A DNA stretch of 32,982 nucleotides from Methanobacteriota archaeon (GCA_027064305.1 JAMOPY010000012.1:1-32982); one strand, 5' to 3'; numbered from the stretch's first letter, positions 4,987-19,293 are shown. Numbers and translations: made by a program. The notes: generated by a model from the letters alone, not told the origin.

Positions 4987-5682
4987 GTGAAGGTCCCCCG
5001 GGAGAGGCTCTCCAGGTGGCTGGAAAGGGAGGACGAGAGGGCCCGCCGTGCGGCCGCCCGGTACCGGGACTGGGCCGAGGGGCTGCGGCGGTTTGAGGTT
5101 TTTCAGTACGTTAAAAAGCGCACGGGGGGACTCGGGCACGGGGAGGGGCGCTTCGAGGCTGGCAAGATGGGCGTCAAGGGGTACGTGATCGCGTGGCCCG
5201 AGCGGGCCCGGGGCGCCGTGCTGGAGATCGGCACCGGACTGGGTCGAACGGCGTGGGCCCTCCTCGAGTGGGGGCGACCGAGGCTGCTCGTCTCGATCGA
5301 GGTCGACCCCAGGATGCTGGCCATCGCCCTGTACCGAAACCCGGTTCGGGAGTTCTCCGAGGCGCTGCGCGACGAGCGGGTGAGGCTGGTGCTGGGGGAC
5401 GCGCGCCGGGTGGTCCCGAGGCTACCGAGGGGAGCGTTCGATCACGCCGTGCACGACGGGGGTCCCTGCCCCCGACGCAACCCATCCCTGTTCTCGGAGG
5501 GGTTCCTAAGGGAGCTGGCGGGGAGGCTCAGGAGGGGAGGTACCGCGTCGGTCTTCGCCGGGCGGGATCCGGGGTGGCAGGATCGGCTGTACGAGGCGTT
5601 GAACGGGTTGTTCGAGAGGGTGTGGTCGGAGCGGTTTCCGGACACGCCGACCCTGGTCCTGCGGTGTGAGGGGAGGCGTTAG
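4987..5682 (+). CDS. Class I SAM-dependent methyltransferase
   Basis: Motif I VLEIGTGLG, SIEVDP, LVLGDA, FDHAVHDG, LRRGG. An alternative start is ATG 5168. Confidence 0.85.
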   Translation: MKVPRERLSRWLEREDERARRAAARYRDWAEGLRRFEVFQYVKKRTGGLGHGEGRFEAGKMGVKGYVIAWPERARGAVLEIGTGLGRTAWALLEWGRPRLLVSIEVDPRMLAIALYRNPVREFSEALRDERVRLVLGDARRVVPRLPRGAFDHAVHDGGPCPRRNPSLFSEGFLRELAGRLRRGGTASVFAGRDPGWQDRLYEALNGLFERVWSERFPDTPTLVLRCEGRR

Positions 5683-11234: not shown

Positions 11235-12368
11235 GTGCGCTGGTTGTCCGAGGAGGGTGAGAAGATCACCGTAAGCGTGATCAAGGCGGACGTGGGCGGC
11301 TTCCCGGGTCACTCGGAGGCGCACCCGGACCTGCTGGAGGCGTGCGAGGGCGTGCTGGAGGAGGCGAAGGACGAGATCCTGATCGACTACTACGTGACCC
11401 GGTGCGGCGACGACATCGACCTGATCATGACCCACACGCGCGGGGTTGACGACGAGAAGGTGCACGAGCTGGCGTGGAACGCGTTCCAGGAGGCGACGGA
11501 GGTCGCCAAGGACCTGAAGCTGTACGGTGCCGGTCAGGACCTGCTGTCCGACGCGTTCAGCGGGAACGTGCGCGGGCTGGGTCCGGGCGCGGCCGAGATG
11601 GAGCTCCTGGAGCGGCCCAGCGAGCCGATCGTCGTGTTCTGCTGCGACAAGACGGAGCCGAGCGCGTTCAACCTGCCGCTGTTCCGCATCTTCGCGGACC
11701 CGAACAACACGGCCGGCCTGGTGCTGGACCCGAGCATGCACGACGGGTTCGAGTTCGAGGTGCACGACGTGATCGACCAGAAGAAGGTGATCCTGCGGTG
11801 CCCGGAGGAGATGTACGACCTGCTCGCCCTGATCGGGCAGACCCAGCGTTACGCGATCAAGCGGGTGTACAAGAAGGGTGACGGGCCCGAGGAGGAGCGG
11901 ATCGCCGCGGTGACCAGCACCGAGCGGCTCAACCTGATCGCGGGCGAGTACGTGGGGAAGGACGACCCGGTCGCGATCGTCCGCTGCCAGAGCGGGTTCC
12001 CGGCGCTCGGTGAGGTGCTGGAGCCGTTCGCCCTGCCGCACCTGGTGGCCGGGTGGATGCGCGGCAGTCACAACGGCCCGCTGATGCCGGTCTCCGAGGA
12101 CGACGCGCACCCGACCCGGTTCGACGGGCCCCCAAGGATCATGGCCTTGGGTTTCCAGCTGCGCAACGGCGAGCTGATCGGGCCGCAGGACCTCTTCGAC
12201 GATCCCGCCTTCGACCGGGCCCGGAGGCTGGCGAACGAGATCGCCGACTACATCCGCAGCCACGGTCCGTTCCAGCCGCACCTGCTGTCCGAGGAGGAGC
12301 TGGAGTACACCACGCTGCCCGACGTGCTGAAGAAGCTAGAGGACCGCTTCGAGGACCTGGAGGACTAG
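11235..12368 (+). CDS. fbp: Fructose-1,6-bisphosphate aldolase/phosphatase (FBPase class V)
   Basis: SVIKADVG, GDDIDLIMTH, LYGAGQDLL, FSGNVRG, EYVGKDDP, GWMRGSHNGP, RFDGPP, HGPFQPH. The start may be TTG 11244. Confidence 0.98.
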   Translation: MRWLSEEGEKITVSVIKADVGGFPGHSEAHPDLLEACEGVLEEAKDEILIDYYVTRCGDDIDLIMTHTRGVDDEKVHELAWNAFQEATEVAKDLKLYGAGQDLLSDAFSGNVRGLGPGAAEMELLERPSEPIVVFCCDKTEPSAFNLPLFRIFADPNNTAGLVLDPSMHDGFEFEVHDVIDQKKVILRCPEEMYDLLALIGQTQRYAIKRVYKKGDGPEEERIAAVTSTERLNLIAGEYVGKDDPVAIVRCQSGFPALGEVLEPFALPHLVAGWMRGSHNGPLMPVSEDDAHPTRFDGPPRIMALGFQLRNGELIGPQDLFDDPAFDRARRLANEIADYIRSHGPFQPHLLSEEELEYTTLPDVLKKLEDRFEDLED

Positions 12369-13192
12369 ACCAGCGGGGCCAGGAAGGCCAGCAGGCCCAG
12401 CAGCATCCCCGCCTTGACCGCCCGCTGCGCCCTTCCCACGTCCCACCCCCGGCACGCGAGGAGGGACGCACCGAGGATCACCGCGGCCGCCGGCAGCGCC
12501 AGGACCGGGTAGGGCCAACCCACCGCCCCGCGCAGGTAGGGGACCGGGGTCAGCGCCAGCAGCACCCCGGCGATCGCGGCGGCCGTGCGCAGGGCCACCC
12601 GCTCCCCGCACACGATCGGCAGCGTGCGCAGGCCGAGGGCCGCGTCCCCCTCCACGTCCTCCACGTCCTTGAGGATCTCCCGCACGAGGTTGGCCAGGAA
12701 CGCGAGGGCGAACATCCACGCGGCGGGCGCCGGCCGCGCGCCCACGGCCGCCCCGAACAGGAAGCACGAGCCCACGAGGTAGGAGACGACCGCGTTCCCC
12801 ACCAGGGGCGTTCCCTTCAGCCGCGCGGAGTACGCGTACAGCAGGACCGAGTTCACCGCGGCGATGAGGAGGCACGTCGGGTTGATCGCGGCCGCTAGGA
12901 GGGTTCCGAGGGCGAAGCAGCCCAGGGCGAACCGGTGGGCCGCCCGGCGCGAGACCCGACCGCTCGGGATGGGTCGGTCGGGCCGGTTGATCGCGTCCAC
13001 CTCCGCGTCGAAGTAGTCGTTGATCGCGTTCCCGCCCGCGCACACGATCGCCGCCGCGAGCGGGGCCAGCGCGGCCCGGACCGGATCCTGCACCCCGGCG
13101 ACCAGCTCCCCGATCAGCACCCCCACCGCGGCCATGGCGCAGTTGACGGGGCGGGCGAGCTCCAGGTACGCCCCGAGGCTCACCCCGTCCAC
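12365..13192 (-). CDS. Digeranylgeranylglyceryl phosphate synthase (UbiA family)
   Basis: RPVN, NDYFDAEVDAINRPDRPIPSG, REILKDVEDVEGD, multiple TM helices. Confidence 0.93.
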   Translation of the reverse strand: MDGVSLGAYLELARPVNCAMAAVGVLIGELVAGVQDPVRAALAPLAAAIVCAGGNAINDYFDAEVDAINRPDRPIPSGRVSRRAAHRFALGCFALGTLLAAAINPTCLLIAAVNSVLLYAYSARLKGTPLVGNAVVSYLVGSCFLFGAAVGARPAPAAWMFALAFLANLVREILKDVEDVEGDAALGLRTLPIVCGERVALRTAAAIAGVLLALTPVPYLRGAVGWPYPVLALPAAAVILGASLLACRGWDVGRAQRAVKAGMLLGLLAFLAPLV

Positions 13193-13195
13193 CCC

Positions 13196-13260
13196 GGGTA
13201 TGACGAGTGTGGGCCGTCTGGAGCCGCCGCGCGATGAAGACGCCTCGATTGGCCGACCCC
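13196..13260 (+). ncRNA. C/D box sRNA (2'-O-methylation guide) no. 1
   Basis: C ATGACGA 13200-06; 12-nt guide GTGTGGGCCGTC; D' TGGA 13219-22; C' ATGAAGA 13234-40; 12-nt guide CGCCTCGATTGG; D CCGA 13253-56; short GGG/CCC terminal stem. Fills the intergenic gap. Confidence 0.8.
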
Positions 13261-13261
13261 G

Positions 13262-14281
13262 CTACGTCACGAAGTGCAGCTTCGCGCCGCAGTACTCGCA
13301 GTGGAAGTCCTCCGTCACGTGCATCTCCGTGACCGCGAAGCCGCGGCGCTTCACCACGGGCCGCTTGCACTCCGGGCAGTACGTGTGCTCGTACTCGTGA
13401 CCCGGCACGTTCCCGGCGTACACGTAGTACAGCCCGACCTCGTACCCGATCCTCACGAACCGCTCGATCGTCTCCACGGGCGTGGGCGGCCGGTCCAGCA
13501 TCCGGTAGTCCGGGTGGAACCGGCTCACGTGCCAGGGCGTCTCCGGCCCGAGCTCCCGCTTGATCCAGCGGGCGAGCCTCCGCGCCTCCTCCTCCGAGTC
13601 GTTCAGCCCCGGGATCACGAGCGTGGTCACCTCCACGTGGACGCCCATCCTCTTCCAGATCTTGCAGGTGCGGAGCACCGGCTTCAACCGTCCCCGGGCC
13701 ACCTCCCGGTAGAACTCGTCCGTGAACGCCTTGAGGTCGACGTTGGCCGCGTCCAGGTGCTCACCCAGCAGCTCGGCGGTGGACCGGGTCGCGAACCCGT
13801 TGGTCACGTACACGCGGCCGAGCCCGGCCTCCCGGCACCGCTCGAACACCTCGATCGTGTACTCCAGGTTGATGATCGGCTCGTTGTACGTGAACGCGAC
13901 GCTCTCGCACCCGGTCCTCCGGGCGCCCCTCACGACCCGGTCGGCCGGCCACTCCTCCATCGGCACCTCCTCGGGGCTCGCCTGGCTGATCTGCCAGTTC
14001 TGGCAGTGGCGGCACCGGAGGTTGCAGCCCACGGTCCCGAGGGAGAACACGTCCGTCCCGGGCTTGTAGTGGAACAGCGGCTTCTTCTCGATCGGGTCCG
14101 GGACCGCCGTGCTGGCCCGGTTGTACGTGAGGAGCTTCAGCACGCCCCCCTCGTTCTCCCGGACGCGGCAGAACCCGCGCTCACCCTCCGGGATCGTGCA
14201 GCGGCGCGGGCAGACCAGGCACCGGACCGACCCGTCCTCCGCGCGCTCCCAGGAGCGTCCCTCCCACTCCTCCAGCCGCAT
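13262..14281 (-). CDS. amrS: AmmeMemoRadiSam radical SAM enzyme
   Basis: N-terminal CLVCPRRC...GFCRVR, DPIEKKPLFH, CNLRCRHCQNWQISQ, FTYNEP, SRFHPDY, YAGNVPG, C-terminal CPEC/CEYC. Confidence 0.96.
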   Translation of the reverse strand: MRLEEWEGRSWERAEDGSVRCLVCPRRCTIPEGERGFCRVRENEGGVLKLLTYNRASTAVPDPIEKKPLFHYKPGTDVFSLGTVGCNLRCRHCQNWQISQASPEEVPMEEWPADRVVRGARRTGCESVAFTYNEPIINLEYTIEVFERCREAGLGRVYVTNGFATRSTAELLGEHLDAANVDLKAFTDEFYREVARGRLKPVLRTCKIWKRMGVHVEVTTLVIPGLNDSEEEARRLARWIKRELGPETPWHVSRFHPDYRMLDRPPTPVETIERFVRIGYEVGLYYVYAGNVPGHEYEHTYCPECKRPVVKRRGFAVTEMHVTEDFHCEYCGAKLHFVT

Positions 14282-14320
14282 GAACTCACCCCTGCGGTGC
14301 CCGGCGGCGGCGGGTGGGTA

Positions 14321-14326
14321 CTTAAG
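14321..14326 (+). promoter_or_regulatory. TATA-like box (CTTAAG, palindromic) for sRNA no. 2 and possibly also for amrS
   Basis: About 28 nt before the C box at 14354 on + and about 40 nt before the amrS ATG on -. Confidence 0.5.
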
Positions 14327-14349
14327 TCCCCCGTCACCACCGGTCCCCG

Positions 14350-14418
14350 CGCCGTGACGACAGTCCCGCGCTGTAGAGGCCCGCCGGGCCGATGATAGGG
14401 CGGCTCATTGCCGAGCCC
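14350..14418 (+). ncRNA. C/D box sRNA no. 2 (degenerate internal boxes)
   Basis: C GTGACGA 14354-60; guide CAGTCCCGCG(CTG); D' CTGT 14371-74 or TAGA 14374-77; internal hairpin GGCCC-gcc-GGGCC; C'-like ATGATAG 14392-98; 12-nt guide GGCGGCTCATTG; D CCGA 14411-14; TATA-like box upstream. Confidence 0.65.
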
Positions 14419-14419
14419 C

Positions 14420-15700
14420 TCACAGCAGCCGATCGTACTCGGCCAGCAGGTCCCGCGGCTCCGGCTCCGACACCAGCCACAGCTTCGGCGGTGGGACCGT
14501 GCCCCGCTCCACCCGCCGATGGAACGGGTCCCGCAGCGCGTGCAGCCAGGGGGCCAGCAGCACCCTCGGGTACCCGGAGGGCGGGTCGAGCTCGGTGCAG
14601 CTGTACGCCATCTCCACCATGTCCACCCACGCCTCCGTCCCCTCCAGGAGCGCGACCGTCTCGGCCACCGTCCAGAGCCGGAGCAGGAGCCGCGAGCGCG
14701 CGGCCCGCCTCGCGAAGTCCAGCGGTCGCACCAGGACCCGGCCCCGGCCCATCCCCGCCAGCTCCCGGGCCCACCGGGTCCGGGCGTTCGGTGAGTAGGC
14801 GGCGGTGGGGTACCGAACGCCCAGCGCCCTGACGGCCCGCTTGTGCGCGTCGATCAGCCCGCGCAGCAGCCGGCGATCCCGGAGGACCTCCGCGACCAGC
14901 CTCCCCGCCTCCTCGACGTCCCTCCGGGTCCGGAAGTAGTGCAGCGAGGCGGCCACCGCGAGCCGCTGGCGCACCCGGTCGCGAACCTCCCTCAGCGCGC
15001 GCTCGTCCGCCCGTTGGGGTTCCGGGACCCCGGCGATCAGCTGGACCCGGGAGAGGAGGCTCAGGTACCGGCGGCGCGGGAGCTCCGGGGGGCGGTCCCC
15101 CAGGATGTGCGTGGGCGGGCCCGCGGCGTCCTCGGGCGCGCACTTCTCGGCCGGAACGCGGGTGGGTCCGGGCTCGCCCGGGGGCGTGGTGTACAGGAGG
15201 GCGTGCTCGCGCGTTCCCGGGCCCAGCAGCAGCGCGTGACCGCGGACGTTCAGCGCGAGCGCCGCGGCCGCGATGGGGTCGTACAGGATGGTGAACGATT
15301 CGAACAGGTCGTGTGGGCGCGGGGGACCGTGTCGGGCGTACCACAGCGCCGTCAGGTAGGCCCTCAGTGGCAGCCCCGCGGTGACCAGGTACTCGCCCTC
15401 CCGCTCGACGCCCGTCAGCACCAGGGGCTGTCCGGGATCCCAGTGCACCACGGCCTCCGGGTGGAGGCGAAGCGGGGAGCCGTTCACGCGCGACCGGTCG
15501 TCCGGGGGCCCGTGCACGCGCGCGATGAAAGGTCGGACGGGGCGCCCGCGCTCGTCCTCGGTCTCGGGCAGCTCCCTGACCCCTTCGGAGCGGGGCGGTC
15601 GAGCCACGTAGAGGGCGCCCGGGAAGACTGGGAGGGTGTCGGATTCGGGGTCGACGGCGTACAGGCCCCGGTGGAGGCGGCGGGCCCGGGCCCCCGTCAT
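14420..15700 (-). CDS. Hypothetical protein (426 aa), no recognisable family
   Basis: ATG start with GGGGTCA upstream, protein-like composition, fills the gap between sRNA loci. Confidence 0.7.
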   Translation of the reverse strand: MTGARARRLHRGLYAVDPESDTLPVFPGALYVARPPRSEGVRELPETEDERGRPVRPFIARVHGPPDDRSRVNGSPLRLHPEAVVHWDPGQPLVLTGVEREGEYLVTAGLPLRAYLTALWYARHGPPRPHDLFESFTILYDPIAAAALALNVRGHALLLGPGTREHALLYTTPPGEPGPTRVPAEKCAPEDAAGPPTHILGDRPPELPRRRYLSLLSRVQLIAGVPEPQRADERALREVRDRVRQRLAVAASLHYFRTRRDVEEAGRLVAEVLRDRRLLRGLIDAHKRAVRALGVRYPTAAYSPNARTRWARELAGMGRGRVLVRPLDFARRAARSRLLLRLWTVAETVALLEGTEAWVDMVEMAYSCTELDPPSGYPRVLLAPWLHALRDPFHRRVERGTVPPPKLWLVSEPEPRDLLAEYDRLL

Positions 15701-15716
15701 TCCGCCGGTGACCCCT

Positions 15717-15773
15717 GGGCTCGGTACGCCTGCCCCTCATCACGCGTCAGGGCCCGAATGGTTCCTCATCGCC
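15717..15773 (-). ncRNA. C/D box sRNA no. 3 (second of a tandem pair)
   Basis: Minus strand: C ATGAGGA 15769-63; guide ACCATTCGGGCC; D' CTGA 15750-47; C' GTGATGA 15743-37; guide GGGGCAGGCGTA; D CCGA 15724-21; GGC/GCC stem. Confidence 0.85.
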
Positions 15774-15834
15774 GGGTCGGTTAGCGGCACCGGTCTTCAT
15801 CCGGTCCGTGGCCTAAAGGCTCCTCATCCCCGGC
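15771..15834 (-). ncRNA. C/D box sRNA no. 4 (first of a tandem pair)
   Basis: Minus strand: C ATGAGGA 15827-21; guide GCCTTTAGGCCA; D' CGGA 15808-05; C' ATGAAGA 15800-15794; guide CCGGTGCCGCTAA; D CCGA 15780-77; 6-bp terminal stem GCCGGG/CCCGGC. Confidence 0.85.
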
Positions 15835-15883
15835 CGGGTCCCCGGCCGCGCGGGCCGGCGGACGTCACGCGTTCGGCGACCCG

Positions 15884-15966
15884 TTTCGTTCATGGTTTTC
15901 TACTTAAATGATGCCGCTTCTAACGTCCTGTTAAGCCCGAGGTAACCTTAATATTTCCGGGAAAAT
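15884..15966. promoter_or_regulatory. AT-rich divergent promoter region (sRNA pair plus orphan gene on -, radA on +)
   Basis: Minus-strand TTTAAG around 15903-15908; plus-strand TTAATAT around 15948-15954, about 38 nt before the radA GTG; SD-like GGAGGGGGTGA before radA. Confidence 0.6.
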
Positions 15967-15991
15967 CCGGCCCCGGAGGGGGTGAGCGACC

Positions 15992-16945
15992 GTGGTTGAG
16001 GAGGACGTGGTCAAGGTCACCTCCCAGTACCTGCGGCGCAGCGAGGATCAGATCGCGGAGGTGTACGAGCAGCTGGGGATCGAGACGCTGAGCGATCTGG
16101 CCGCCTCGAGGCCGGACGAGATCGCGCGCGCGTTCGGGATCAGCGAGAAGACGGCCAGGAACATCGTCCGGGACGCGAGGAAGGAGGCGAGCAAGGGGAT
16201 CGCGGAGCCGAAGACGCTGGCCGAGCTGCTGGAGGAGGAGGCGGAGCGGGACGTGATCCCGACGGGCATCGAGAGCTTCGACGAGCACATGGGCGGCGGT
16301 CTGCCGACGAAGACGATCGTGGGCATCTACGGGCCGCCGGGGGCGGGGAAGTCGCAGTTCGCGATGCAGGTGGCCGCGAACGTGCTGCGGGAGGGCGGGT
16401 CGGTGCTGTACGTGGACACGGAGAACGCGTTCAGCCCGCGGCGGTTGATCGAGATCGGCGGGTTCGACGAGGAGGAGGCGAGGGAGAAGATCGGCGACCG
16501 GTTCGTGCTGCGCCGGATCGTGGAGGCCGCGGCCCTGACGCAGTATTTCGACGAGGAGGAGGGCGAGTTCCTGGGGGAGGCGCTGAGGCTCGCCCCGAAG
16601 GTGGTGGTGATCGACTCGATCTCGCAGCCGTTCCGTCCCTACGGGGCGCGCGATAAGCTGCCGGAGCGTTCGCGGATGGTGGCGAAGATCCTGAACGCGG
16701 TGCTGAAGTACTGCACGCGGCACAACGCGCTGGGGCTGGTAACGACGCACGTGCAGGCGAACCCGGACGCGTTCGGTAAGCGGTGGCAGGACGTGGCGCC
16801 CACCGTGCTTAAGCACATCGCCACGTACCGGTTCAGCATCGAGTTCAAGGGCCGCACGGAGCGGGTGATCGCGCTGGAGGACGCGCCCGACAAGCCGCCG
16901 TTCGAGGTGGAGGTGGAGCTGACCGACCGCGGCCTGGTCGGTTAA
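15992..16945 (+). CDS. radA: RadA-family recombinase (divergent), with N-terminal HhH domain
   Basis: N-terminal domain (GIETLSDLA..GISEKTARNI), PTGIESFDEHMGGG, Walker A GPPGAGKSQ, YVDTENAFSPRR, Walker B VVVIDS, LEDAP. Confidence 0.8.
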   Translation: MVEEDVVKVTSQYLRRSEDQIAEVYEQLGIETLSDLAASRPDEIARAFGISEKTARNIVRDARKEASKGIAEPKTLAELLEEEAERDVIPTGIESFDEHMGGGLPTKTIVGIYGPPGAGKSQFAMQVAANVLREGGSVLYVDTENAFSPRRLIEIGGFDEEEAREKIGDRFVLRRIVEAAALTQYFDEEEGEFLGEALRLAPKVVVIDSISQPFRPYGARDKLPERSRMVAKILNAVLKYCTRHNALGLVTTHVQANPDAFGKRWQDVAPTVLKHIATYRFSIEFKGRTERVIALEDAPDKPPFEVEVELTDRGLVG

Positions 16946-16953
16946 GCGGAGGG

Positions 16954-17015
16954 GCCGGATGAGGAGACAGCCGGGACCCCGAGTCGGGATGCGGAGTGTG
17001 GCCGTAGCCGACGGC
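16954..17015 (+). ncRNA. C/D box sRNA no. 5
   Basis: C ATGAGGA 16959-65; guide GACAGCCGGGACC; D' CCGA 16979-82; C' ATGCGGA 16989-95; guide GTGTGGCCGTAG; D CCGA 17008-11; terminal stem GCCG/CGGC. Fills the gap between the convergent radA and rnz. Confidence 0.8.
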
Positions 17016-17857
17016 TACCTCCGCAGCCTCACCCTCATTCCCTCGGCGGCCACGAGCGCGTTCGGGAACACCTCCCGGGCCCGCCGGAGCGCCTCCGCCT
17101 CCTCCACCTTCGGGGACAGGTGCGTGAGCAGCAGGAGCGTCACCCCGGCCTCCCGGGCGACCTCCGCGGCCTCCCGGGGCGTCGAGTGACGGTACCGGCG
17201 GGCCTCCTCCGGGTCCAGGAAGCAGGCCTCGTGCACCAGGACCTGACAGCCCCGCACGGCCTCCGGGTCCGCGGGCCGCCCATCCCCGGTGACGTAGACC
17301 GAGAGCCGGCCCGGCCGGGTGATCGAGTAGGGCCTCCTCCCCTCCAGCAGCACCCGGCGGCGCTCCTCCGGGGGCACCTCCTCGATCAGCTCCGGGTCGG
17401 CCCGGCCCGGGATCCTGGGGGTCTCGAGCCGGTAGCTGACGGTGGGCACCGCGTGCCGCGACTCGTGCACGCGTACGGTGAGCTCCCCCACCTTCAGCCG
17501 GTCCCCCGGCTCGACCTCCCGGTACTCCACCTGGTCCAGCCCGGACACGTCCACGGCCTCCTCCCCGGTCACCGGAGGGCCGTACACGCGCACCCGGCGA
17601 CCGTGCAGCATGTCCAGCGTGGTGACGAGCGGTGGGATTCCGGCAACGTGATCGGTGTGATGGTGCGTCACCAGCACGGCGTCCAGGTCGTGCAGCGACT
17701 CGCCGTACCGGAGCGCCCGGCGCTGCACTCCCTCCCCGCAGTCGATCAGCAGCTTGGTATCCCCGTACCGGACCAGCAGACCCGGGTGACCGCGGTCCCG
17801 GGAGACGACCGCGCCCCCGGTGCCCAGGAAGAGGAGCTCCAGGGTCCGGGCCGTCAT
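17015..17857 (-). CDS. rnz: Ribonuclease Z (tRNase Z, metallo-beta-lactamase fold)
   Basis: ATG 17857: FLGTGG, LIDCGEG, THHHTDH, H-AVP, VTGD, LVHEAC, HST, LLTHLS. The ORF-track extension to 18052 overlaps the upstream gene. Confidence 0.9.
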   Translation of the reverse strand: MTARTLELLFLGTGGAVVSRDRGHPGLLVRYGDTKLLIDCGEGVQRRALRYGESLHDLDAVLVTHHHTDHVAGIPPLVTTLDMLHGRRVRVYGPPVTGEEAVDVSGLDQVEYREVEPGDRLKVGELTVRVHESRHAVPTVSYRLETPRIPGRADPELIEEVPPEERRRVLLEGRRPYSITRPGRLSVYVTGDGRPADPEAVRGCQVLVHEACFLDPEEARRYRHSTPREAAEVAREAGVTLLLLTHLSPKVEEAEALRRAREVFPNALVAAEGMRVRLRR

Positions 17858-19293
17858 CGCGCCACCTCCCGGGCCGCCCGCTCGAGGGCGCTCACGCCCT
17901 CCCTCAGGAAGTCCAGCAGGTCGTCCACCCGACGGAGCCTGCGGCGCCCCAGGCACTTGGACATCTCGTGAATAATCTCCTTGACGTCCCGCCGGGAGAT
18001 CCCGCGGCCCTGGTGCACGAACGCGTGCCGTAGCCTGCGGAGCTTGGAGCACGAGAGGGCCCTCAGCCGCTCCATGAGCGGCCCGAACACCGACTCGTCC
18101 ACCCGGCGGAGTCGGATCGCGGCGGCGGTCACCCGGGAGGAGAGGTGGAGGAACGTGAGCACGGCCCGACCGCGGCCCTCCTCACCGTGCAGCTCTCGAA
18201 GGATCCGTGACGGGTCCTCCTCGTCCCGGAGGGACTCCTCCAGGAGCTCACCGTCGCCCTCCAGCAGCCGCGCCATGCGCCGCGCCAGGTGCTCCGGGTC
18301 CGTGCTCTCGACGGGTTCCCCCGTGAGGGCGCAGTGCAGCAGCGCGTAGGTGGCCTGGGCGTAGTTCTCGTGGAACATGGTCATCCGGAGGATGAAGTCC
18401 CCGTACTCGCCCCGGACCCACTGGTACCGGGCGTTGTCGAGGATCACCCGCATGTGGTGGAGGATGCGGGCCATCGGGTCCTCGCAGGTCCGCTCCAGCC
18501 GCCGGAGCCGGCGGCGGGCGTCGTGTCGCAGCCGCTCCGACCGGGCGGATCGTATGACGCCCCGGTACAGCTCCAGAGCCTCGTCGTAGTTGAAGTTGAG
18601 CTCGCAGTCGCGGGCCCGGAGGTACTCAGGCTCGGTCGGGTCGTCGTACGCCGAGAACTGCTCGGCAACGTTGGCGGCGACCTCGAAGAGCCCGTGCCTC
18701 GTCAGGAAACCCTTCATAACCTTGGCCGGAAGGATCAGTGGCGAGGGTTCGGTCCGCACCCGTCGGCCCTCGACCCGCACCGCGTGGAACTCCCGCCAAA
18801 GGGAGGCGCCCAGGAGGCGGACGGCCCATTCGAGGTAGGTGTCGGTGTCCAGGACCGCGTAAACTTCGCTCTCGCGGAGCTCGGGCCGCTCCTTGAGGCT
18901 CCTGAGCACCGACTCCACGTCGTGGAAGACGCTGAAGTCGTGGGGATCGCCCTGGATGATGATGGGGTCCTCCACGCGCAGGTTCCTGACCCTGCGCGCG
19001 TACTCGGCGAGGAGTCGGGCGCAGTACTCAGTGTCCTCGGGGTGGTGACCGCTCCGGTGCCCGAGCCGCCGGTAGCCGAGGGGAATGAGCAGGACGCGGT
19101 CCTCGCGGTGCCCCTCCTCCTCGGTGATGAAGCTCAGGACCACGTCCGGGCGCTCCGAGAGGAACTCCTCAGGGTCGGCCTCTCCCGACGTCACCCGATC
19201 GAGGGCCCGGCGCGCGGCCCGGTACAGGTCATCGGCGTCCAGGCTCACGTCTCGGGGCTTGACCACGTAAAGCAGGGTGGCGCTGCACCGCAA
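17854..19293 (-). CDS. Csm6-like CARF-HEPN ribonuclease (stand-alone)
   Basis: Probable TTG start 19293 (479 aa). N-terminal Rossmann-like CARF pattern (LLYVVKPRD...RVLLI...EDTEYCARLL...GDPHDF...VYAVL), helical middle (LNFNYDEA, GEYGDFILR..FHE), C-terminal HEPN RxxxxH motif RHAFVH (18013-18030) followed by GRGISRRDV. Assigned by motif recognition only. Confidence 0.65.
   Translation of the reverse strand: MRCSATLLYVVKPRDVSLDADDLYRAARRALDRVTSGEADPEEFLSERPDVVLSFITEEEGHREDRVLLIPLGYRRLGHRSGHHPEDTEYCARLLAEYARRVRNLRVEDPIIIQGDPHDFSVFHDVESVLRSLKERPELRESEVYAVLDTDTYLEWAVRLLGASLWREFHAVRVEGRRVRTEPSPLILPAKVMKGFLTRHGLFEVAANVAEQFSAYDDPTEPEYLRARDCELNFNYDEALELYRGVIRSARSERLRHDARRRLRRLERTCEDPMARILHHMRVILDNARYQWVRGEYGDFILRMTMFHENYAQATYALLHCALTGEPVESTDPEHLARRMARLLEGDGELLEESLRDEEDPSRILRELHGEEGRGRAVLTFLHLSSRVTAAAIRLRRVDESVFGPLMERLRALSCSKLRRLRHAFVHQGRGISRRDVKEIIHEMSKCLGRRRLRRVDDLLDFLREGVSALERAAREVAR

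Follow-up and report, generated by a model that had tools for sequence, protein, structure and literature searches.

Five very probable C/D box guide RNA genes in a Methanopyrus genome and the covariation of their box letters

The modules in four intergenic gaps

The stretch of DNA analysed here (32,982 nt, referred to as the window) comes from a genome with a G+C content of ~70%, and includes a region in which five ORFs are separated by four intergenic gaps that hold five box-and-guide modules. The genes that separate the modules are UbiA, radical SAM, unknown, RadA-like and MBL-fold. In the following list the modules are given as C / guide / D' / loop / C' / guide / D, as read from the sequence, with spacer lengths in nucleotides.

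12365-13192, minus strand: ORF, bounds gap 1
13200-13256, plus strand: module c1, ATGACGA / 12 / TGGA / 11 / ATGAAGA / 12 / CCGA
13262-14281, minus strand: ORF (radical SAM), between gaps 1 and 2
14320-14327, no strand assigned: AT-rich palindrome ACTTAAGT, possible TATA element
14354-14414, plus strand: module c2, GTGACGA / 13 / TAGA / 14 / ATGATAG / 12 / CCGA
14420-15700, minus strand: ORF, between gaps 2 and 3
15721-15769, minus strand: module c3b, ATGAGGA / 12 / CTGA / 3 / GTGATGA / 12 / CCGA
15777-15827, minus strand: module c3a, ATGAGGA / 12 / CGGA / 4 / ATGAAGA / 13 / CCGA
15902-15909, minus strand: AT-rich element ATTTAAGT, located ~75 nt before the C box of c3a
15992-16945, plus strand: ORF (RadA/Rad51-like), between gaps 3 and 4
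16959-17011, plus strand: module c4, ATGAGGA / 13 / CCGA / 6 / ATGCGGA / 12 / CCGA
17015-18052, minus strand: ORF, bounds gap 4

The original prediction, which described C-guide-D'-C'-guide-D modules in each of four gaps, agrees with this reading: the gap edges coincide with the ORF boundaries, the D box is CCGA in the five modules, the C box is ATGAGGA (three times), ATGACGA (once) or GTGACGA (once), and the ten spacers that separate C from D' and C' from D all measure 12 or 13 nt. It also held that the 33-kb window contains no further modules, and two regular-expression scans returned only these loci and one hybrid match that spans the tandem pair. This pair is formed by c3a and c3b, the latter starting 7 nt past the D box of c3a on the minus strand, while c4 starts 14 nt after the stop codon of the RadA/Rad51-like gene. 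Module c2 was detected only by the looser of the two expressions, and c4 only by the first one because its C' box is ATGCGGA.

The terminal boxes of the five modules follow the pattern xTGAxGA ... CxGA, which would allow the tandem sheared G.A pairs of a kink-turn; the deviations are located at position 5 of the C box and position 2 of the D box, and these two positions form a C:C pair in c1 and c2, and a G:C pair in c3a, c3b and c4. The stems that close the modules, read by eye, comprise only 2-6 bp. The internal D' and C' boxes are clear in c1, c3a and c3b and degenerate in c2 (UAGA/AUGAUAG); in c4 the C' box is AUGCGGA, in which a C occupies the place of the A required for the second sheared pair, and this box is the same in 5/5 genomes.

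Orthologues and predicted targets of the individual RNAs

The guides were compared with 6,738 nt of 16S, 23S and tRNA sequence; no 23S is present in the assembly (89% complete), and those of two relatives (G005 and G002) were used in its place. Five of the ten guides, one per RNA, show at least 10 (10-12) contiguous Watson-Crick pairs covering the N+5 position, a criterion that shuffled guides reached 0.40 times on average and at most three times in 1000 shuffles. The expectation that the guides would show 9 nt or more of complementarity to stable RNAs was borne out for this half; for the other five guides the 16S, 23S and tRNA search returned no convincing target, their longest Watson-Crick runs (7-8 nt) being similar to those of shuffled guides.

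Judged by their sequence, c1, c3a and c4 are the orthologues of the Methanopyrus kandleri C/D box sRNAs 73, 105 and 76, respectively. The strands agree with those published, the guides are identical or almost so, and the RNAs are also alike in box order, in orientation to the adjacent genes and in predicted targets (23S-971, 16S-542 and 23S-2007 for sRNAs 73, 105 and 76, in PLEXY numbering). In contrast, the loops and flanks differ, as do several boxes: the D box is CTGA in sRNA 76 and CCGA in c4, and sRNA 105 has ATGACGA/CTGA/GTGATGA where c3a has ATGAGGA/CGGA/ATGAAGA. The M. kandleri genes are also up to 318 kb apart, whereas c1, c3a and c4 are neighbours here. Table S1 of Su et al. 2013 (NAR 41:6250) indicates circularisation for all three published sRNAs, which were relisted as MKAsR73, MKAsR105 and MKAsR76 (Dennis et al. 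2015). Since these orthologues are sRNAs verified by RNA-seq, RNAs of this kind were already known, and the modules can be called unannotated, as they had been, only in the case of c3b and c2, which are absent from the searchable tables.

For c1, the boxes and both guides are identical in 5/5 Methanopyrus genomes and the D'-C' loop varies with indels. Its guides are the same as those of sRNA 73, for which 87,100 reads of a circular, negative-strand RNA were reported (Su et al. 2013, Table S1). The D guide forms 11 contiguous Watson-Crick pairs with 23S, equalled by 9/1000 shuffled guides, and is predicted to direct the modification of ~U972 (G005 23S numbering). The Rfam search gave only a weak match, to sR23 (16.6 bits, E 0.77). 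A perfect 12-nt genomic match of the D' guide (C33:6491) lies inside long ORFs and was taken as a chance occurrence.

Module c3a is likewise conserved in 5/5 genomes; its orthologue sRNA 105 was represented by 2,300 reads from the negative strand (PLEXY target 16S-542; Su et al. 2013, Table S1). Its D' guide shows 10 contiguous Watson-Crick pairs to the 16S of its own genome (11/1000 shuffles equal it), with ~C544 as the predicted site, and it scores 13.6 bits against Rfam sR47. In the case of c4, which is kept in 5/5 genomes, the D box is CCGA in this genome (G000), G005 and G003, and CTGA in G002 and G001. Its orthologue sRNA 76 was detected with 15,100 reads from the positive strand (PLEXY target 23S-2007; Su et al. 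2013, Table S1). The D' guide of c4 can form 11 bp with 16S in the region of C781 or 10 bp with 23S in the region of C2008; 9/1000 shuffles do as well, and 16S C781 and/or 23S C2008 are the predicted methylation sites. The match of c4 to Rfam sR18 (24.0 bits, E 0.027) falls under the gathering score of 45, and a perfect 12-nt genomic match of its D guide, located inside an ORF, was taken as chance.

The only match at the gathering threshold of Rfam in the whole window is that of c3b to sR47 (43.9 bits versus a gathering score of 40, E 4.4e-07), so that the check with covariance models favours this module and leaves the remaining four below threshold or unmatched. The Pyrococcus family (RF01131) and c3b agree in the layout of their boxes and resemble each other in the D' guide, whereas the D guide of c3b is unrelated to the family consensus. 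A D' target common to both was considered and dropped, as only 7-nt cores were found in 23S; the search of rRNA and tRNA gave no convincing target for this guide. The boxes and the D guide of c3b are kept in 5/5 genomes, G002 among them, and the D guide shows 10 contiguous Watson-Crick pairs to 23S (32/1000 shuffles equal it), with ~C2044 as the predicted site. The G002 orthologue, in the region 1233340-1233405, was not found in the searchable supplementary tables of Su et al. 2013 and Dennis et al. 2015. Given that it is not among the RNA-seq-detected sRNAs of those tables, this orthologue may be weakly expressed; given the conservation of c3b in five of the six genomes of the genus that were searched, this RNA is probably missing from the reference annotation too. 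The element ATTTAAGT is a possible promoter of a c3a-c3b co-transcript.

Module c2 is a candidate C/D box sRNA confined to one Methanopyrus clade, with full-length homologues in 3/6 genomes of the genus (G000, G005 and G003). Complementary to positions 23-34 of tRNA, its D' guide forms 11-12 contiguous Watson-Crick pairs with 7/26 predicted tRNAs, equalled by 4/1000 shuffles; from this pairing, c2, an RNA with a non-canonical internal k-loop, is predicted to guide Gm26 in seven tRNAs, namely Arg(TCT), Ser(GCT), Cys, Lys, Thr(TGT), Asn and Tyr. Its assignment as the orthologue of M. kandleri sRNA 65 was rejected, since the true orthologue of that RNA is located at C36:7150-7215 and this genome has both. 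The two RNAs are alike in the core and register of the D' guide, both placing G26 at N+5, and unlike in locus, D guide and internal k-loop.

This redundancy raises an alternative restricted to c2, namely that it is not a working guide and represents a decaying copy or a tRNA-antisense by-product. In its favour, the D' guide of the sRNA 65 orthologue is almost identical and has the same register, the D' and C' boxes of c2 are non-canonical, the module is missing from 3/6 genomes of the genus and has no Rfam match at E<=10, and no target in rRNA or tRNA was found for its D guide (longest Watson-Crick run 8 nt). On the other hand, c2 is 90% identical between G000 and G003 with both spacers kept at 12-13 nt, and conservation starts with the C box, the flank upstream of it not being alignable. 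Furthermore, the internal k-loop carries a compensatory change that preserves its pair, from TAGA and ATGATAG (U:A) here to TGGA and ATGACAG (C:G) in G003, and the pairing with tRNA is longer for c2 (11-12 bp) than for the sRNA 65 orthologue (9-10 bp). We consider it unlikely that c2 is non-functional, and its predicted modification, Gm26 in seven tRNAs, offers a testable target. A perfect 12-nt genomic match of the D guide is located on C36, in the intergenic DNA that separates two sRNAs. Upstream of c2, ACTTAAGT lies ~27 nt from the C box on the plus strand and ~39 nt from the start codon of the radical-SAM gene on the minus strand; this possible TATA element is not kept in G003.

Gene order, excess over chance and proposed function

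The cluster had been described as a hotspot, a view that survives only in part. The five sRNAs in 3.8 kb compare with ~0.28 expected from 126 sRNAs in 1.69 Mb, this is the densest 3.9-kb stretch of the assembly by our own scan, and the module order is kept in G005 and G003; these data could be explained if the cluster were a functional unit, either a co-regulated island of sRNAs or a birthplace of sRNA genes. Nevertheless, the five sRNAs are placed on both strands with unrelated genes between them, no sequence is common to their guides, and in G002, a complete genome of reference length, the orthologues are scattered at ~915, 993 and 1233 kb, each adjoining the same neighbouring gene or sRNA as here. 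The only neighbours without a gene between them are c3a and c3b, and such pairs have been described as common (review PMC7994747). Table S1 of Su et al. 2013 already contains denser M. kandleri clusters, one with six sRNAs within 3.1 kb and another with seven within 5.0 kb. A functional unit is therefore very unlikely, and the apparent hotspot is a product of gene order.

At the scale of the genome, an expression that combines boxes and spacing gave 47 matches in the 1.21-Mb genome and 0 in each of five first-order Markov simulations, and a looser one gave 77 matches versus 4, 3 and 3 in the simulations. A fixed-spacer pattern yielded 23-35 matches per genome in six Methanopyrus genomes, and its backwards control yielded 0. 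The box conservation in related genomes was confirmed in 5/5 Methanopyrus genomes for c1, c3a, c3b and c4, and in 3/6 for c2; the boxes and guides are invariant while the loops and flanks vary, with indels that are not multiples of three. The genome also encodes fibrillarin (345.7 bits), Nop5 (252.4 bits) and L7Ae (102.4 bits), all above the Pfam cut-offs and with no internal stops. The idea that the modules only resemble C/D boxes, either by chance or as promoters, terminators, leaders or similar ordinary signals of intergenic DNA, could appeal to the short and degenerate nature of C/D boxes, to the four of five modules that have no gathering-level Rfam match and to the AT-rich promoter-like elements in gaps 2 and 3, but it is close to refuted by the 0-4 matches in simulated genomes versus 47-77 observed, by guides and boxes that are exactly conserved within intervening and surrounding sequence that is not, by the sequenced RNAs that are orthologous to three modules, and by a guide complementarity above that of shuffled guides.

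The architecture of the modules, their excess over chance, the conservation pattern, the complementarity, the protein genes and the covariation of the boxes described below were all observed directly. On these grounds, the five modules are very probably genuine archaeal C/D box guide RNA genes of a Methanopyrus species, an identity that is supported for all five and is weakest for c2. We infer that they are transcribed in this organism, assembled into RNPs and responsible for methylations at the predicted sites; a search for RNA runs of this genome found none among the seven sequencing runs listed (four studies). According to the mechanism proposed, L7Ae would bind each RNA at two sites, the kink-turn formed by the terminal C and D boxes and the k-loop formed by the internal C' and D' boxes, and the L7Ae-bound RNA would recruit a Nop5 dimer and two fibrillarins. 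The 12-13-nt guides would then pair with a stable RNA, and the base opposite the fifth guide nucleotide upstream of D or D' would receive the 2'-O-methyl group. Regarding their expression, c3a and c3b would probably share a single transcript, c4 would probably derive from the mRNA of the RadA-like gene, at its 3' end, and c1 would be transcribed against its neighbours, like its published orthologue.

With ~126-127 C/D box sRNAs already known in Methanopyrus, such sRNAs are ordinary for the genus and the locus itself adds little; the gain for annotation amounts to five genes for guide RNAs, of which two do not appear in the published reference lists.

Covariation between the C and D boxes

The unusual letters of these boxes had been interpreted as a lineage-specific consensus. 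The deviation is real and extends to the whole genus; nevertheless, the header of Table S1 of Su et al. 2013 already states D = CNGA, and an unrelated archaeon (G011) shows the same variant pairs at a lower frequency, according to boxes tallied by eye. Beyond the consensus, C-box position 5 covaries with D-box position 2, which together form the 3b:3n pair of the k-turn, in the combinations G:C, C:C, U:U and A:G. The mutual information between these positions is 0.88 bits for C5 and D2 and 0.60 bits for C'5 and D'2 in G000, and 0.62 and 0.63 bits, respectively, in G002; in both genomes 0/5000 shuffles reach either value. Non-partner box combinations were not significant in G000, and in G002 the non-partner combination C'5 and D2 gave 0.175 bits, reached by 338/5000 shuffles and far under the partner values.

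When 30 orthologous sRNA pairs from two species were compared (60 k-turns), the 3b:3n pair was found to differ in 26 k-turns, and in 16 of these the change affected both sides. The commonest pair is G:C (21/54 terminal and 17/54 internal k-turns) and U:U represents a minority (10/54 and 5/54, respectively); the G:C form is commonest in the higher-G+C species. This differs from the canonical archaeal k-turn, in which 3b:3n is U:U and 4b:4n is G:C: the tandem G.A pairs and the 4b:4n G:C are retained in nearly all matches, whereas 3b:3n is mostly occupied by other pairs. A strong propensity to U:U at this position was described for archaeal sets (Ashraf, Huang & Lilley 2017, RNA 23:1927).

Our search found no published statement of this C5/D2 covariation. 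The comparison outside the genus included five other archaea and, with 16 matches in G011, one in G007 and none in the others, rests on one genome; as the same pair types are present in that archaeon, Methanopyrus may differ from it in degree only. Random drift does not account for the unusual letters of the boxes. Our tentative interpretation, which we put forward as a possibility somewhat short of an even chance, is that the Methanopyrus box consensus reflects a pair rule, in which the 3b:3n pair has largely abandoned the usual U:U and switches fast among G:C, C:C, A:G and U:U while the guides stay fixed, and that c2 is a new clade-specific Gm26 guide with a U:A/A:U k-loop.

Methanopyrus has a growth temperature near 100 degrees C. 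If the published folding rules, by which a k-turn with a Watson-Crick pair at 3b:3n does not fold without protein, apply here, assembly of these RNPs would depend more on L7Ae. Gene finders that score each box against an invariable string will overlook many of these genes; snoscan failed on 45/126 of the M. kandleri sRNAs (Su et al. 2013). The 3b:3n variants of Methanopyrus also constitute a natural series for the biophysical study of k-turns.

Five C/D box modules in four intergenic gaps

The assembly, of which the window is contig C12, comprises 1.21 Mb in 50 contigs, is 89% complete and has a G+C content of 69.8%. The four intergenic gaps singled out in the original prediction match the ORF map exactly; reading these gaps directly and scanning them with a box/spacing regular expression returned the five modules, their box letters and their spacers as they had been described.

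C/D box sRNA modules of the window
c1: 13200-13256, + strand
c2: 14354-14414, + strand
c3a: 15777-15827, - strand
c3b: 15721-15769, - strand, in tandem with c3a (begins 7 nt past its D box)
c4: 16959-17011, + strand

All ten spacers are 12-13 nt long and the D box is CCGA in the five modules, while the C box is ATGAGGA in three, ATGACGA in one and GTGACGA in one. The genes flanking the gaps encode a UbiA prenyltransferase, a radical-SAM protein, a 426-aa protein, a RadA/Rad51-like ATPase and a metallo-beta-lactamase-fold protein. The ORF for the 426-aa protein (14420-15700, - strand) matched none of the Pfam families at E<=0.001; across the genus its conservation is only 69-77%, versus 85-92% for its neighbours in the closest relatives. 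In the gap that holds c3a and c3b, the AT-rich CTTAATATTT (15947-15956) is probably the TATA box of the RadA/Rad51-like gene, whose GTG start lies 36 nt downstream; taken with ACTTAAAT (15902-15909), it points to divergent promoters.

The box/spacing expression matched 47 sites in the genome and none in each of five first-order Markov simulations; a looser version, in which a degenerate internal k-loop was allowed, gave 77 matches versus 4, 3 and 3 in simulations. Likewise, a fixed-spacer pattern found 23-35 matches per genome in six Methanopyrus genomes, and none when reversed. Within the window the scans detected only these five loci, as had been proposed, plus one hybrid match spanning the c3a/c3b tandem. 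The Rfam covariance models were less uniform: at the gathering threshold the single match in the whole window was sR47 at c3b (43.9 bits, cut-off 40), and at permissive thresholds c4 weakly matched sR18 (24.0 bits), c1 sR23 (16.6 bits) and c3a C/D families (13.6-14.2 bits), with no match for c2 even then.

A DNA search of 13 genomes recovered the region from each of the other five Methanopyrus genomes, although the complete gene order is retained only in G005 (88-92% identity) and G003 (77-88%). The expected conservation of the boxes was borne out: an alignment of c1 from five genomes shows no difference in the boxes or in either guide, while the D'-C' loop varies in sequence and length, and the alignments of c4 and of the c3a/c3b tandem behave in the same way. 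This is the pattern expected of guide RNAs. Full-length homologues of c2 occur in three of the six genus genomes (the one under study, G005 and G003). The sRNA positions listed in Table S1 of Su et al. (2013) land on matching sequences of the relative G002, and by their shared guides c1, c3a and c4 correspond to M. kandleri sRNAs 73 (87,100 reads, negative strand, circular), 105 (2,300 reads) and 76 (15,100 reads) of that table. The G002 orthologue of c3b has intact boxes; its guide strings are absent from the workbook of Table S1 (Su et al. 2013) and from three supplementary files accompanying Dennis et al. (2015). The description of these RNAs as unannotated holds for c3b and c2, which are unlisted in the tables searched, and not for the other three.

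From the excess over chance, the alignments, the guide complementarity and the published orthologues, the assignment to C/D box guide RNAs was right. The locus very probably holds working C/D box sRNAs; c1, c3a and c4 are almost certainly such RNAs, and c3b is regarded as one with good, slightly lower, confidence. The original prediction overrated the novelty of the locus, which is of a kind usual for the genus and has two unlisted members. The genome encodes fibrillarin, Nop5 and L7Ae, and the RNAs most likely act in the standard way, in which L7Ae would bind both k-turns, Nop5 and fibrillarin would then assemble, and the guides would direct 2'-O-methylation at the target nucleotide opposite the fifth guide base (N+5). 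We infer that the RNAs are expressed in this organism and circularised, as well as their ends and the methylations. Within C40:5465-7254 the genes for Nop5 and fibrillarin are adjacent on the - strand and directly followed by two C/D sRNAs at 5614-5666 and 5465-5513, which correspond to sRNAs 43 and 45 in the published table; the first starts approx. 20 nt past the fibrillarin match.

Predicted targets and the c2 module

Each guide was compared with the 16S rRNA of this assembly, the 23S rRNA of G005 and 26 predicted tRNAs (6,738 nt in total), and only exact Watson-Crick runs that cover guide base five, counted upstream from D or D', were accepted. A 23S rRNA gene was not found in the assembly, though 16S is present on contig C40; only 26 tRNAs were predicted (aragorn), and four of these, of 92-93 nt, may contain introns or be false calls. 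The anticipated complementarity to stable RNAs was obtained for half of the guides, one in each RNA, with at least 10 pairs; over 1000 trials with shuffled guides, the mean number that qualified was 0.40 and the highest 3. The remaining five paired no better than shuffled guides.

Predicted guide targets
c1 D guide: 23S ~972, 11 pairs
c2 D' guide: tRNAs, 11-12 pairs
c3a D' guide: 16S ~544, 10 pairs
c3b D guide: 23S ~2044, 10 pairs
c4 D' guide: 16S ~781, 11 pairs; 23S ~2008, 10 pairs

Three of these sites agree with the PLEXY predictions listed for sRNAs 73, 105 and 76 to within 1-2 positions of numbering.

The D' guide of c2 pairs over 11-12 nt with seven of the 26 tRNAs (Arg-TCT, Ser-GCT, Cys, Lys, Thr-TGT, Asn and Tyr), with N+5 falling on the G that separates the D stem from the anticodon stem, position 26 as read from the cloverleaf. 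In tRNAs of hyperthermophiles, 2'-O-methylated m2,2G is known at this position. At C36:7150-7215 this genome also encodes the true sRNA 65 orthologue, whose guide is almost identical to the D' guide of c2 and in register with it, but pairs over a shorter 9-10 nt. The internal boxes of c2 (D' UAGA, C' AUGAUAG) would form U:A and then A:U pairs beyond the two G.A pairs of the k-loop; in the G003 homologue (UGGA and AUGACAG) C:G stands in place of U:A, so that both sides are changed and the pair is kept. A GGCC/GGCC stem in the 14-nt D'-C' loop is retained in all three genomes, and conservation begins sharply at the C box. The D guide has no target in 16S, 23S or the 26 tRNAs. Because the k-loop pair is kept, conservation starts at the C box and the tRNAs are complementary, c2 is judged a probable working guide. 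A perfect 12-nt complement of its D guide lies at C36:48445-48456, in an unexplained intergenic stretch of approx. 100 nt. This stretch belongs to a dense RNA island (C36:48330-48730; 430-830 of locus L106), where it follows the sRNA 68 orthologue and precedes two C/D sRNAs on opposite strands and a tRNA.

Origin of the cluster

Five sRNAs occupy 3.8 kb, where a density of 126 per 1.69 Mb predicts approx. 0.28, and by the looser scan this is the densest 3.9-kb stretch of the assembly, the runner-up holding four. Nevertheless, the term hotspot was overstated: the orthologues are dispersed in G002, near 915, 993 and 1233 kb, each with its neighbour retained, and Table S1 of Su et al. (2013) lists six sRNAs within 1231253-1234309, sRNA 105 among them, and seven within 519204-524175. 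Both strands carry members of the five, with unrelated genes in between, and the cluster reads as a by-product of gene order, with the exception of the c3a-c3b tandem.

Covariation of the box letters

The fifth base of the C box (C5) and the second of the D box (D2) form what we take, from the standard k-turn layout, to be the 3b:3n pair. The present assembly (G000) and G002 were rescanned with both bases free, which gave 54 matches in each and none in three simulations per genome.

Terminal C5:D2 pairs among 54 matches per genome (G000; G002)
G:C: 21; 13
C:C: 12; 11
U:U: 10; 14
A:G: 6; 4
C:G: 2; 4
Others: 3; 8

The internal pair (C'5/D'2) behaves like the terminal one in both genomes. Mutual information between partner boxes was 0.60-0.88 bits, a value reached by none of 5000 shuffles, versus 0.02-0.18 bits between non-partner boxes, non-significant except for one borderline case (C'5 with D2 in G002, at 0.175 bits, which 338 of 5000 shuffles attained). 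The D box is CUGA in only 11/54 (G000) and 19/54 (G002) matches, and CCGA occurs with AUGAGGA, as a Watson-Crick G:C, or with AUGACGA, as C:C. Across 60 k-turns from 30 orthologous sRNA pairs matched through their guides, the 3b:3n pair was the same in 34, whereas a single side differed in 10 and both did in 16; among the differences, G:C was found in the 70%-G+C genome in ten and in the 61%-G+C genome in three, counts that compare two genomes and imply no direction of change.

The deviation of the boxes in one direction is therefore real and has a structural reading; the claim that it is a lineage-specific consensus fared less well. As raw data it is not new, since the table header of Su et al. 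(2013) already gives D and D' as CNGA. The unrelated archaeon G011 (1.9 Mb, one contig) yielded 16 matches which, tallied by eye, show the same pair types as Methanopyrus (C:C, G:C, A:G), so that the C5:D2 rule probably holds across archaea, with the pair frequencies shifted in Methanopyrus; unlike Methanopyrus, G011 has U:U in 8/16 terminal and 8/16 internal pairs. A strong U:U propensity was reported for archaeal box C/D k-turns (Ashraf, Huang and Lilley 2017), and a Watson-Crick 3b:3n pair was reported to block folding in metal ions alone (McPhee et al. 2014). No printed statement of the covariation rule for Methanopyrus box sRNA k-turns was found in the papers searched, although a differently worded one could exist, and the rule is worth stating explicitly.

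The C' box of c4 (AUGCGGA, 16990-16996) has a C at the site where the second sheared G.A pair requires an A, and is unchanged across five genomes. In the published table, the same GAUGCGGA string was seen by eye in sRNAs 2, 76, 83 and 104. Read in another register (GAUGC), the box would regain the G.A pairs, but with a spacer of 15 nt.
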